Part shown: positions 11,600 through 57,225 of the stretch, piece after piece
How the letters are laid out: each line of letters starts with the position of its first letter
Position numbering within the stretch: the stretch's first letter is position 1
NCBI RefSeq assembly: GCF_963921235.1
Contig: NC_086097.1
Location: forward strand, 22,818,001 to 22,882,000
Direction of reading: 5' to 3'
From: Mobula hypostoma
Taxonomy: Eukaryota
Length of the DNA stretch: 64,000 nucleotides
Notes under the pieces: generated by a model
The model's database searches: none
What the model saw: only the letters and a program-made list of their open reading frames with translations
What the model was told of the DNA's origin: nothing
Made by a program: the position numbers and the translations under genes

Positions 11600-11770
11600 A
11601 ATCACAAGAAATTCCGCAGATACTGGAACTCCAGAGTCTATGAAAATCAGTCTGTGCCCCTGATGAAGTCTCTTGGCCCGAAACGTTGTCTTGGCCTGAA
11701 ATGTTGAATGTTTATTCCTCTCCCTGGATTCTTCCCAACCTGCTGAGTTCCTCCAGCATTTTGTGTGTGA
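11600..11770 (+). mobile_element. Penelope family A terminal cassette with short inverted partner
   Basis: cctgatgaagtctcttggcccgaaacgtt...ctgctgagttcctccagcattttgtgtgt, preceded by an inverted fragment at 11600-11638. Confidence 0.75.
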
Positions 11771-17027: not shown

Positions 17028-17109
17028 ATTAACCTCAATACTACCAAGAGACAGCATTTGTTATTAAGCACTTATGAATAGATTTTTAAAGAGCTGTGAG
17101 AAGAGGGGA

Positions 17110-17270
17110 GGAACCCAGCAGGTCAGGCAGCAACTGTGGAGAAGAATAAATAGTTGAGGTTTTGCGTGGAGGCCCTTCATCAGGACACTGCGTGTTGCCC
17201 GATCCGCTGAGTTCCTCAAGCAATTTGAGTGTGTTGCTTTGGATTTCCAGCATCTCCAAACTTTCTCATG
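17110..17270. mobile_element. Inverted pair of Penelope family A terminal fragments
   Basis: Minus copy with cccttcatcaggac (CTGATGA on minus strand) abutting a plus copy gctgagttcctc...ggatttccagcatc. Confidence 0.7.
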
Positions 17271-18159
17271 TCTTTAGCAAGCATTCAAAAGCCTGGCTAT
17301 TTAAAAAAAAAGCTTCAAAATGGAAGGGAGTAAAACTGCAGGTACTGGAAATCTGAAACAAAAAGAAAAATTGTTGGAAATGCTCAGCAGAGTAGGTAGC
17401 ATCTATGGAAAGAGAAACAGAGTTAACTTTCTGGCATGGGGTCTCAAGTAAATTACTCCATTCTATAAGAAAAAATGAATTTTCTGGTTTCATTATGAAA
17501 CGGATTAATTTATTCATTGAAGCACAAAGCTCTATGCAACTTAGAGAATAATGACCATGCTAGAAAATTATATTCCTCACATATAGTTATGAATGCAATT
17601 ATTTCAAGATATTTATCCTTTGTTATTGCACCTGTTCAAATCAGTAACACATTTTGATAAGACAACATGAGGCAGCAAATTATTATTTTTCTGTTTTTAG
17701 TTTTCTACAGCTTTTTAATTTGCTGTTCAATGTTTTTTTTAATTTATTACTTCAGTATAATTAGGAATACATCAAAAATCTAGCCATAGATTTTGTCATT
17801 TATAGTTATTGATAGAAAATAGCATTTTCTATTTGTTGAATGCCATTGACATAACATTGGCAGCAAGTCATAAAAACACTTAGTAGATTTTCTTTGTGGG
17901 ATGCATCAGTGATTGTGATATCCTGGCTTTTTATTTACTCCAGATGTCAGGAAATAGGAAAATTTATTCAAATTTCAATATGTGTCATCAAATTCATTGT
18001 TGGTCCAAAAATCGATGACAGAAACAGTGGAAAAGGTAAACAGGACTCTTATGTTATATTAGCTTATTTTGTTATGTTACTTATATTAGCTCAGTGATAG
18101 AATATAGATCAATGGACCTTGCTAGTGTACGAAGCCTTGAAGAGGTTTGAGATAAAAGG

Positions 18160-20144: not shown

Positions 20145-20430
20145 TGGGCTACAGCGTAATGGTTACGGTGATGCTATTACAGTTCGGCAAGTTGGAGTTC
20201 AGAGTTCAACTCCGGTGCCATCTGTTAGGATTTTGTACATTCTCCCTGTGACTGCATGGGTTTCCTCTGGGTGCTCTGGTTTCCTCTCACAGTCCAAAGA
20301 CATACCGGTTGGTAGGCTAATTAGTCATTGTAAATTATCCTGTGATTAGGCTGGGGTTAAATAGGTGGGTTGCTGTGTGGTGTGGCTCATTGGGCCTGAT
20401 CTGTGCTATATCTCTAAATAAATTAAAAAA
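20145..20430 (+). mobile_element. HE1-like V-SINE, near full length
   Basis: tRNA-like head (agcgtaatggtta...gagttcaactcc), core tctccctgtgactgcatgggtttcctctgggtgctctggtttcctc, tail tctctaaataaa. Confidence 0.85.
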
Positions 20431-20474
20431 TGTGGACTTTGTGACAACAAATTTGAAAGCTAGTTGAAATGTGA

Positions 20475-20612
20475 TTTGAAAGGAAAGATTATTGACATTT
20501 AGGGCATACTCATTGCTAAAATCATCAGCTGATTGGCTTTTCATGAAAAGCCAATCAGCTGATGGTTTTAGCAATGACTATGCCCCAAATGTCAATAATC
20601 TTTCCTCTCAAA
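20475..20612. repeat. Loop-less palindrome 1 (69-bp arms)
   Basis: Checked base by base: centre between 20543 and 20544, 4 mismatches in 69 pairs. Confidence 0.97.
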
Positions 20613-20720
20613 ATCTGAAACTACTGCAAAAATTGGCAATATATAGCAGAAAGATTAGCTTTCATGAAAAGCCAATCTTTCTGTTATATATTGCCAATTT
20701 TTGTCATAATTTCAGATTTT
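20610..20720. repeat. Loop-less palindrome 2 (~55-bp arms)
   Basis: aaaatctgaaactactgcaaaaattggcaatatatagcagaaagattagctttca | tgaaaagccaatctttctgttatatattgccaatttttgtcataatttcagatttt; centre 20664/20665. Confidence 0.95.
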
Positions 20721-21119
20721 CAGCATTCGCAATTTTCATAGAATCAGAAAACGACTTCAGCCCATCTTTCATAGAGTTAACTGATTTATCCTCCTTCCAC
20801 GCTCAGAAATTTGTACTTCTTTGAAGTATAACTATAAATACCTTTTGAAATTAGTGAATTTGCATCCACCTCTCTTCATGCAGAGCATCACAATCAGTGT
20901 GTAAAGGATATATCATCCTCCGAGTGCTTGGTATTTGGGCAATTATCACACACCTATATCCTATGGTTACTGACGTCTCTGCAAACAGAAACAGTTTATC
21001 CTCATGTATTTTTAGGATCCAAAAACTTCCATGATTGTGAGCATCATTATCAAACCTCTTCTTGATGTTCTCTTGCTGAAAGTTAACTTGATGACCTAAT
21101 TCTGCTCCTGTGTCTTTTA

Positions 21120-21412
21120 TTTACTTCTTGTTTAGAGAGATAAAGTGAGGACAGGCCCTACCAGTCCAATGAGCTGCACTGGCCAGCAACACACCTATTT
21201 AACACTAACCTAATCACAATTTACAATGACCAATGAATCTACTAACCGGTCTATCTTTGGACTGTGGGAGGAAACTGGAGCTTGCGGATGAAGCCTATGT
21301 GGTTCACGGGGAGAACGTACAGGCTCCTTATAGGCGGCTTCGGAATTGAACTCCAAACTCCAGGACACTCCAAGCTGTAATAGCATTGCGCTAACCACTA
21401 CTCTACCCCGGC
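21120..21412 (-). mobile_element. HE1-like V-SINE
   Basis: Reverse of core (cacggggagaacgtac...ctcctta) and head (ctgtaatagcattgcgctaacc). Confidence 0.85.
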
Positions 21413-33684: not shown

Positions 33685-34375
33685 AAGAAGGTGAGAGCAT
33701 CAGAAGGAGTGAAAGCTAGGAGATAAAGTTGAGTCCTGAGGAAGGGCCTCAGCCCAAAACAGCGACTGTTACACTTTTCCATCGATCCCGCCTGACCTGC
33801 TGAGTTCCTCCAGCGTTTTGTGTCAGTTGCAGGAGATAGGTGAAGCCAGGTGGGGGGGGGGGGGGGAATTGGGTGAGTAGGGAATGGCGGGGCGGCGAAG
33901 TGAAAAGATGGGTGATAAGTTAAAAGAGTAAAGGGCTGAAGAAGAAGGAATCTGACAGGAGAGGTGAATGGAACATGAGAGAACAGGAAGGAGGAGGGGC
34001 ACCGGGCCGAGCTGTTGGGCAGTGAGGAGAGGAGTAGAGGCAGAAGGGGAGCCAGAATGGGGAACTGAAGGAGAGAGAACAGGGAAGGGGAATACTACCT
34101 GAAGTTAGAGAAATCGATGTTCATGCCATCAGGTTGGAGGCTACCCAAAGGGAATATGAGGTTTTGGCCCTCCAACCCGAAAGTGACCTCACCGTGCAAG
34201 TCGAGAACACCAAGGACTGACATGTTTGGAACGGTAATAGGACATGGATTGGAATTAAAACAGTTGGCCACCAGGAAATCCTGCTTGGTGCGGTCAAAGA
34301 ACAAGTGCTCTGCAAAACGGACTCCCAGTCTACATTGGGTCTCACTGATGCCAAGGAGGCTGCATCGGCAGCTCC
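33685..34375 (-). mobile_element. Penelope family A: GIY-YIG endonuclease remnant and 3' UTR, with an inverted cassette at 33731-33830
   Basis: Minus-strand CRCSLLGISETQCRLGVRFAEHL (CxxC-YIGETxRxLxxRFxEH) and VANCFNS...LEGQNLIFPLGSLQPDGMNIDFSNFR. Confidence 0.9.
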
Positions 34376-35048
34376 GGAATTATCAACACCGAGATGGGAA
34401 GTGTGAACTTGCTAAAGGTAGATATTTGATTAGATGTTGGAAGAAAAGAATTAGGGATGATTTTTTGGACAGATAATAACAGGGCAGTATGACTGATGTC
34501 CCATTTAACTGGAAGTAGTTTTGCTTTTTGTGATTATGGCAGCATCATGAAGGGAACCTCTGACAACTTAAGTTCAGCATGATCGTTATAAGCAAGCAGT
34601 CATTCTTGCTTGCTTTATATTCCTGCTTTACCCTCAGGGAAACAGTTGATAATTGGGAATTGATGGCAGATTGAAATCTAATCAGGGGGTTTACATAATA
34701 TCATCTGAATCCCTCAAAATTTGATTATATCCCTGTCATCACATTCAGCAATCTATTATTCTCAACAGTAAAATAAAATCAGACCCATTGGATTAAATTG
34801 CAGACTAGTAATCACTGCCAGCTATTTATTATACTCTGTGATTGATACTGCAAAGTCATCTTTATTTAATTTTTAGACCATTTATTTTTCTAACACACGT
34901 CATGACAGTATGCTATAATGTCAGTGTCCTGATGATTGATTATGTGATTTTATCACTGGAGGTTTATTGGGTGGTAACCAATAGTTTATAGTAAAAGAAA
35001 CACAGAAATTGCTTCTTTGCAATGATGTGGTTGTGTGGTAGCAAGATA

Positions 35049-44177: not shown

Positions 44178-44311
44178 GACAAATAAAGCTAAACTCTCTT
44201 TAATTAATAGAAGTAAAAAAACACATTTAACTGTATGCTTCACATGCAGCAAATGATAATAATCTTTTTTTTTTACTTATATTAAATAATGAGAGTTTAG
44301 CTTTATTTGTC
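44178..44311. repeat. Inverted repeat with 21-bp perfect outer arms
   Basis: GACAAATAAAGCTAAACTCTC (44178-44198) and GAGAGTTTAGCTTTATTTGTC (44291-44311), imperfect AT-rich extension inward. Confidence 0.85.
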
Positions 44312-56845: not shown

Positions 56846-56984
56846 GTCAGTACTTAGTCATATGGAAGTGCTGTCAGTTTAAATCCAAAAACAGTTGGTA
56901 AGAAACGTTGGAAAGAGCTTAACAGTCTTACTGGAGACCATCTTTTTTTCATTCTGCTTAAATACATAGACTATAATGTAGATT

Positions 56985-57225
56985 ATAGTCTTGATGAAGG
57001 GTCTCAGGCTGAACTGTTGATTGTTTATTCATTTCCATAGATGCTGCCTGACCTATTGAGGTCCTCCAGCATTTTTTGTGGGTTGCTCTGGACTTCCAGC
57101 ATCTGCAGAATCTAAACTGTCTGGAAATCCAGAGTAGCACACACAAGATGCTGGAGGAACTCAGCAGGTCTGCCAGCATCTGTGAAAATGAATAAACAGT
57201 CGATGTTTCAGGCCGGGATCCCTGT
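56985..57225. mobile_element. Tail-to-tail inverted dimer of Penelope family A cassettes
   Basis: Plus copy ~56985-57112, minus copy ~57120-57222; flanked by CTATAATGT at 56971-56979 and 57228-57236. Confidence 0.85.

Follow-up and report, generated by a model that had tools for sequence, protein, structure and literature searches.

Twin loop-less palindromes with one shared 26-bp centre: a probable scar of replication errors at a short palindrome

How do two neighbouring palindromes come to share one centre and yet to have unrelated outer arms? The question is raised by a locus in a 64,000-nucleotide stretch of DNA from Mobula hypostoma (the whole of which is called here the window), where a sequence-only reading had described such a pair and had proposed for it a range of functional, mobile and structural explanations. 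On balance, we regard the locus as a neutral, locus-specific scar of replication errors at a short palindrome, and it is with good confidence that we assign it to local routes, meaning this scar and the repair of a break at a cruciform taken together. The features to which the text refers are listed below (P1 and P2, the two palindromes; p and q, flanks; c' and c, core halves).

20473-20480, plus strand: left outer end, an imperfect direct repeat of the right outer end
20475-20543, plus strand: P1 left arm (p c'), running continuously from the left flank in an orthologous contig of sequencing run X5 (20400-20554)
20531-20556, no strand: core 1, a perfect 26-bp palindrome in the window sequence
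20544-20612, minus strand: P1 right arm (c p'), an inverted copy of 20475-20543, found in runs X5 and X12
20544-20664, minus strand: middle segment of 121 bp, running from one axis to the other (c p' q' c'), which in the single-unit rebuild is what was added and inverted
20607-20615, no strand: junction, overlap of both inverted copies, whose reverse complement resembles both outer ends (GATTT)
20607-20664, minus strand: P2 left arm (q' c'), an inverted copy of 20665-20723, in four of the four runs examined
20653-20677, no strand: core 2, a decayed copy of the 26-bp palindrome, inverted over 20655-20675 in organism E
20665-20723, plus strand: P2 right arm (c q), the original right flank, continuing unbroken into 20724-20736
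20680-20736, plus strand: decayed 3'-end fragment of a multi-copy, presumably Penelope-like repeat, identical at 40 of 60 columns to 17332-17391 on the minus strand
20715-20723, plus strand: right outer end, an imperfect direct repeat of the left outer end
20724-20736, plus strand: unduplicated end of the same fragment, 13 nt past the P2 right arm
17332-17444, minus strand: reference copy of the same 3'-end family, outside the locus (HMM E = 4e-23, the copy itself being in the training set of the HMM)

The 69-nt arms of P1 meet without a loop and differ by four mismatches, the inner 21 bp being perfect, and those of P2 (limits approximate) differ at 7 of 49 columns over 20617-20713. Both palindromes are thus present as described, but they are more than abutting, since they overlap by about 6-9 nt at 20607-20615, and the order of the locus is p c'c p' q' c'c q. 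The description of essentially the same centre with unrelated outer arms was borne out: the centre common to P1 and P2 is exactly 13+13 nt, exact in P1 and carrying one substitution and a 1-nt gap in P2, and local alignments between the outer arms gave p values of 0.79, 0.72, 0.90 and 0.64 (3000 shuffles each), by which the arms are ruled out as distant homologues. The arms of core 1 with the adjoining bases read AGCCAATCAG, which we take to contain a putative CCAAT/NF-Y-like word. At up to three mismatches the 26-mer has one match in the window (0.00 expected from 100 shuffles), and its gapped second copy at the P2 centre was picked up by BLAST; the statement that no other repeat of the window is matched holds for the 26-mer, but the P2 right arm does match the Penelope-like 3' end at 17332-17391 (minus strand). 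Leaving TA runs aside, the window has no further loop-less perfect palindrome with arms longer than 7 bp. Folding gives z-scores of -19 (DNA) and -22 (RNA), and not one of 100 shuffles does as well in either case; the cruciform-forming potential suggested earlier is supported. Elsewhere in the window, at 44178-44311, AT-rich arms of 52 nt with 7 mismatches form an inverted repeat around a 30-nt spacer, which is not among the self-matches listed. A 114-aa frame across the palindromes (20480-20824) has no Pfam match at the curated cut-off, as is true of all five open reading frames of the window compared with Pfam, of which it is one. A frame at 566-985 shows a Cys/His pattern, presumably resembling a retroelement gag zinc knuckle, with no Pfam match at cut-off. 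The locus is flanked by copies of a multi-copy repeat at 20153-20430 and 21136-21404, in opposite orientation and about 75% alike, which we take to be SINE-like.

Long palindromes are easily mis-assembled and the locus is spanned in full by no examined contig, which would suit a fold-back artefact of assembly, a possibility raised by the sequence-only reading itself. Part of this region is present in 20 of 24 listed sequencing runs (12 studies), with no RNA run among them, which carries no weight as to expression; our orthologue comparison, which left out the four best-matching runs (possibly the source sample) and rows with small shares, used contigs of four runs (X5, X9, X11 and X12) from four studies and four other organisms, placed at 80% likeness to the window. 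Both P2 arms occur in all four runs, each run with differences of its own, and both P1 arms occur in X5, each with distinct letters, whereas P1 has no coverage in X9 and X11 and its left arm is covered by 15 nt in X12. At core 1 one X5 contig ends at 20554 and the next starts at 20533, and a 34-nt record of the same run (20529-20562) has a depth of 15.0, twice that of its flanks (7.0-7.4), which fits a 38-bp perfect palindrome present once, as expected of a 31-letter graph. The locus is confirmed as real and as inherited across several species; the orthologous contigs from four studies refute a fold-back artefact for P2, and to an artefact at the locus altogether we assign a negligible probability.

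The layout becomes simple once a single original palindrome is assumed: the centres match because both would descend from it, and the arms differ because they would be its former left and right neighbours. A shared centre then needs no shared function, since a palindrome whose two flanks are each duplicated in mirror image will itself be found twice. Joined directly, the P1 left arm and the P2 right arm give a single unit p c'c q containing a palindrome with 13-bp arms, and this unit, after a 122-bp tandem duplication and an inversion between the axes, differs from the window at 11 of 322 columns, which equals the number of arm differences (4 + 7) and leaves no filler DNA. The fit is partly built in, as any such layout can be rebuilt likewise; what it shows is that foreign DNA is unneeded. 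The P1 left arm would accordingly be the sequence that stood to the left of the ancestral 26-bp palindrome from the start. The ancestral unit is a reconstruction; neither the single unit nor a tandem intermediate occurs among the four runs, all of which carry both P2 arms and no joint.

The number of events needed was approached by a symbolic enumeration of four-point template switches with intermediates of up to 10 symbols. From the single unit it returned 0 one-event routes and 6 two-event intermediates, from the tandem dimer 9 one-event routes, and from either unit deprived of the palindrome 0 routes of up to two events; routes of two switches exist in which no return point lies behind the first switch. 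The word GATTT is found at both outer ends and at the internal junction. Perfect microhomology of at least 5 nt arises by random joining in 0.6% and of at least 4 nt in 1.9% of cases, with the reservation that the best gap-free register gives 3 perfect nt and the GATTT overlap needs a one-letter slip in the T run, so the overlap lends mild support to one-step joining routes. Template switches are documented as a source of inverted repeats and of inverted spacers (PMC5453318), and inverted repeats as the setting of 17-33-nt microinversions (PMC8755829); the component events of our scheme are known mutation types.

The history which we propose would run as follows. An old, 5'-truncated 3' fragment of a Penelope-like repeat would have sat at the site and decayed, of which part can still be read there. 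A perfect 26-bp palindrome c'c may then have arisen at or near the 5' end of the fragment, giving p c'c q. Next, either a unit of about 122 bp would have been tandemly duplicated at the GATTT direct repeat and inverted between the cores, or, alternatively, two successive palindrome-seeded template switches would each have mirrored one flank. Finally, the arms have diverged by point changes and the P2 centre has flipped once in one lineage, as the contigs of the related organisms record.

The right flank provides the order of these events. Over 20696-20736 many contigs of other loci were placed, with depths of 54-65 against 6-7 for the locus (X5, X12); they carry 5-7 differences per 38-41 letters and have loose ends on both sides, two of which, upstream, resemble by eye the sequence upstream of the repeat copy at 17332-17391 (minus strand). 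Compared across the window, the match between 20680-20736 and this copy is not significant with the letters of the window (37 of 200 shuffles as high), but becomes so with orthologue letters (1 of 200 for X5, 2 of 200 for X9). The family link of the fragment goes through an HMM built from repeat copies of the window, which is dominated by another Penelope-like subfamily and gives the locus a match of only E = 0.9. The repeat family we take to be Penelope-like, a label drawn from a motif and from the paper cited in the next sentence. Relatives of the 17332-17391 copy in the window bear a hammerhead-type motif, CTGATGA...GAAAC, described as a mark of Penelope-like elements in the cited part of PMC4209133. 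A motif of the Penelope-like subfamily had 0 matches in metagenomes. The similarity of the locus to the repeat fades at about 20680, as judged by the one window copy of that subfamily available for comparison. Since the older repeat runs 13 nt past the arm end, the P2 right arm is native to the site and the left arm was copied from it, a conclusion that is independent of the Penelope-like label. In organism E one of 36 positions differs between the outer P2 arms, and the two share many departures from the repeat family. With arms so alike and a fragment so diverged (40 of 60 columns identical; 5-7 differences per 38-41 letters), the repeat would have decayed first and been mirrored much later, an order that should hold unless arm conversion was stronger than the data show; more conversion than is seen would weaken this dating.

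The rest of the locus has no such tie. Against Penelope-like copies the core scored no better than chance (96 of 100 shuffles as good), and the P1 arm gave p values of 0.08-0.91 in seven comparisons with six copies, on which its candidacy as a decayed hammerhead region of such a repeat was rejected. The P1 left arm was not tied to any native repeat either (scores as good in 39 of 100 shuffles and in 3 of 100). The same repeat class has left other traces in the window. At 56973-57223 a sense Penelope-like 3' end (56988-57112) and an antisense one (57121-57223) stand tail to tail. An inverted repeat with 10-bp arms lies where the sense copy begins at its 5' junction, and a short direct repeat can be made out by eye on either side, in contrast to the usual picture, in which the inverted copy is at the 5' side. 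A head-to-head fold-back of one subfamily occupies 17107-17263, 70 bp from the copy of the second subfamily at 17332-17444, and at 11671-11706 an 18-mer of the hammerhead region of one copy is tandemly duplicated. A decayed Penelope-like ORF end (94-aa frame, 34095-34379) followed by a pyrimidine-rich stretch lies at 33860-34400 on the minus strand, for which Pfam and Atlas brought no confirmation; in particular, GIY-YIG was not confirmed for the protein remnant at 34098-34379 by either (best Atlas score 0.76, no lead).

If the hairpins were maintained, substitutions in one arm should be answered in the other, and compensatory changes in orthologues had been proposed as a check. With the flipped centre set aside, 14 arm sites vary by substitution among the five organisms and 11 are scorable, the three unscored ones being changes of organism E whose partner arm lacks coverage. 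None of the 11 shows a compensatory change, and all seven scorable single-species substitutions break arm pairing; site 20675 may be a case of one arm correcting the other, or of two changes that arose separately. The palindromes show no shortage of substitutions relative to the flanks (Fisher p 0.08-0.78, with a trend towards more). In reading these figures it should be kept in mind that the differences of X11 (depth 2.6) and of one X9 contig (4.8) may include errors. Of what had been suggested from the low arm mismatch, a moderately recent origin is supported and maintenance by selection is not, given 0 compensatory changes and no substitution depletion. Three adjacent transitions at 20522-20524, in the P1 left arm of one X5 contig, may represent a small template switch.

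A change of another kind concerns the P2 centre, which in X12 (organism E) reads as the X5 centre reverse-complemented letter for letter. The flip extends over at least 21 nt and is supported by one contig with a depth of 5.95; the perfect arms around it measure 29 nt, just under the length that confuses a 31-letter graph. It appears to be a microinversion of a kind known between inverted repeats (PMC8755829, PMC5453318 and PMC8794818, in the parts cited), and by it the locus is seen to be capable of the inversion that the scheme needs.

In place of two or more replication errors, one event could have produced the same outcome. The 26-bp palindrome would extrude as a cruciform and be cut by a resolvase into two hairpin-capped ends, after which the hairpins would be opened or copied 58-69 nt from the tip and the mirror extensions joined at the GATTT microhomology. 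This route predicts two loop-less palindromes with the full centre in each, of equal age and with a microhomology junction, all of which are seen, and the cited part of PMC7999016 describes both the passage from cruciform cleavage through hairpin-capped ends to palindromic duplications and fold-back priming at short palindromes. The same source ties cruciform cleavage to palindromes of extrusion length and to large duplications, and our literature searches brought up no case of 60-70 nt additions occurring as a pair, one to each side. Sequence alone cannot separate this route from a replication-error scar, and we consider it unlikely; that the locus is a germline fossil of cruciform resolution, both hairpin-capped ends having been rescued by 60-70-nt mirror additions and microhomology joining, is put forward equally tentatively. 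Somewhat less credible is a single Penelope-like integration, in which P2 would consist of an inverted copy, a sense copy and a tail on one side, host flank having been mirror-copied by the reverse transcriptase as well. The P2 arms are indeed mostly Penelope-like 3' end, and adjacent inverted copies with one-sided tails are typical of these elements (PMC8557442, in the part cited); one other window copy, at 57121, likewise ends at position 112 of the profile, and the 5' junction of one copy bears a 10-bp inverted repeat. Of 14 copies, however, one showed such a junction repeat, which random 51-mers show in 0.7% of cases, an overall chance of about 9%, and the unduplicated end of the locus (20724-20736) has 13 nt instead of the 30-40 of Penelope-like tails. 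Moreover, the family departures common to both arms point to decay before duplication, unless conversion was strong, and P1 and the core remain without a Penelope-like match (p 0.08-0.91; 96 of 100 shuffles).

The proposals of a hairpin-type mobile element and of a selected paired site fare worse. Eulor relics are called hairpin-type, and one may imagine a low-copy non-autonomous two-hairpin DNA element, Crypton- or Eulor-like, inserted by a tyrosine recombinase or similar, or, as a variant, a hairpin-capped 121-bp unit, bounded by 13-bp terminal inverted repeats, whose circular dimer had been opened. Such repeats do bound the middle segment, an opened circular dimer would give the same order, and the 5-nt word at both outer ends recalls the 4-6-bp terminal direct repeats of Cryptons, which the cited part of PMC3212892 reports for fungal and oomycete Cryptons and not for animal ones; GATTT at both ends is also expected of slippage duplication. 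Yet where arms and core are covered their summed depth at 80% likeness is that of one contig (X5 7.0-7.4, X12 5.7-6.0, X9 4.5-6.7). Contigs show presence, not absence, and a rare or diverged family could escape this measure, but the same search was sensitive enough for 39-nt, about 85% matches to another family. The right end falls inside a native repeat and is marked by no element boundary, and the exact 26-mer core had 0 matches in viral contigs, metagenomes and prokaryote genomes. A tyrosine recombinase site has a 6-8-bp spacer between inverted repeats of 11-13 bp (PMC3212892); the core has no asymmetric spacer of this size and can be read either as 13-bp arms that meet directly or as 10-bp arms whose spacer is a palindrome in its own right. 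With single-contig depth and an arm running into an older native repeat, the mobile-element explanation is very unlikely. A MITE was rejected as well, because the outer ends are imperfect direct and not terminal inverted repeats and the 121-bp internal segment, which has 13-bp inverted ends, is flanked by mirror copies of itself; a hAT-type excision footprint was set aside by reasoning, as hairpins formed at target-site duplications would not have their midpoints on a single palindrome's axis. Selection, as paired CCAAT/NF-Y-type sites or as a precursor of double-stranded or small RNA, is compatible with a mutational origin and could draw on the very stable folds, on the constancy of core 1 over 20529-20562 in three organisms where covered, and on the finding that template switches can seed new miRNAs (bioRxiv 2023.04.19.537475, in the part cited). 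An unchanged stretch of 34-36 bp is unremarkable, though, at about 3% divergence; at least one CCAAT word of core 2 is lost in all five organisms and both in B, D and E, and Rfam gave 0 matches in the window at the gathering score. With no compensatory changes at 11 sites and substitutions no rarer in the palindromes than in the flanks, we see very little room for a selected recombinase or protein-binding site or an RNA precursor.

Our preference for a neutral replication-error scar has some consequences. As a single neutral scar the locus matters little on its own, but it offers a clean natural example of a compound palindrome-seeded rearrangement followed by a later flip of the centre, and it illustrates that neither selection nor a mobile element is needed to produce a conspicuous double hairpin with a common centre, which calls for caution against taking such hairpin pairs for recombinase sites. 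No description of the compound twin layout was found in the titles and abstract openings searched, most of the subscription literature lying outside this search. If the cruciform route were true, two neighbouring palindromes without loops, alike in the centre and unrelated in the arms, would be a searchable signature of past hairpin-capped breaks in animal genomes, and were the layout to recur genome-wide without tandem intermediates, it would become a countable footprint of their repair, which at very short palindromes has so far been known mostly from engineered systems and tumours.

Several known systems resemble the locus in part. Crypton-derived Eulor5 and Eulor6 and non-autonomous Cryptons (PMC5753468, PMC3212892) are likewise short, lack terminal inverted repeats at their outer ends and have no more than a short terminal direct repeat, but they form interspersed multi-copy families, whereas our locus is seen at one orthologous site; this comparison is by description only, and in the main texts of both papers the words hairpin and palindrome are absent. 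miRNA precursors prefer a stem of about 35 bp and a loop of at least 10 nt (bioRxiv 2023.04.19.537475), from which P1 differs by its 69-bp stem without a loop. Penelope-like fold-back insertions (PMC8557442, PMC4209133) share with P2 an inverted copy beside a sense 3' end and an unduplicated extension; theirs is a 30-40-bp tail, ours has 13 nt, the duplication would post-date the decay of the fragment, and the centre and all of P1 have no shown element origin. Hairpin-capped breaks (PMC7999016) also yield inverted duplications centred on a pre-existing palindrome, although their products are large and involve one broken end, while at our locus both flanks are mirrored over 60-70 nt and the chromosome is intact. 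The microinversions of Potapova et al. 2022 (PMC8755829) are exact reverse-complement replacements and match the P2 flip; they explain the flip and not the duplication, and the proposed middle inversion would be 121 nt. The four-point template switches of Loytynoja and Goldman 2017 (PMC5453318) have in common with the locus the local copying of a reverse complement, in pieces of 58-69 nt here; the twin layout differs in needing two such events, or a tandem duplication and one, and the flip of the P2 centre in organism E would be an event of just this kind.
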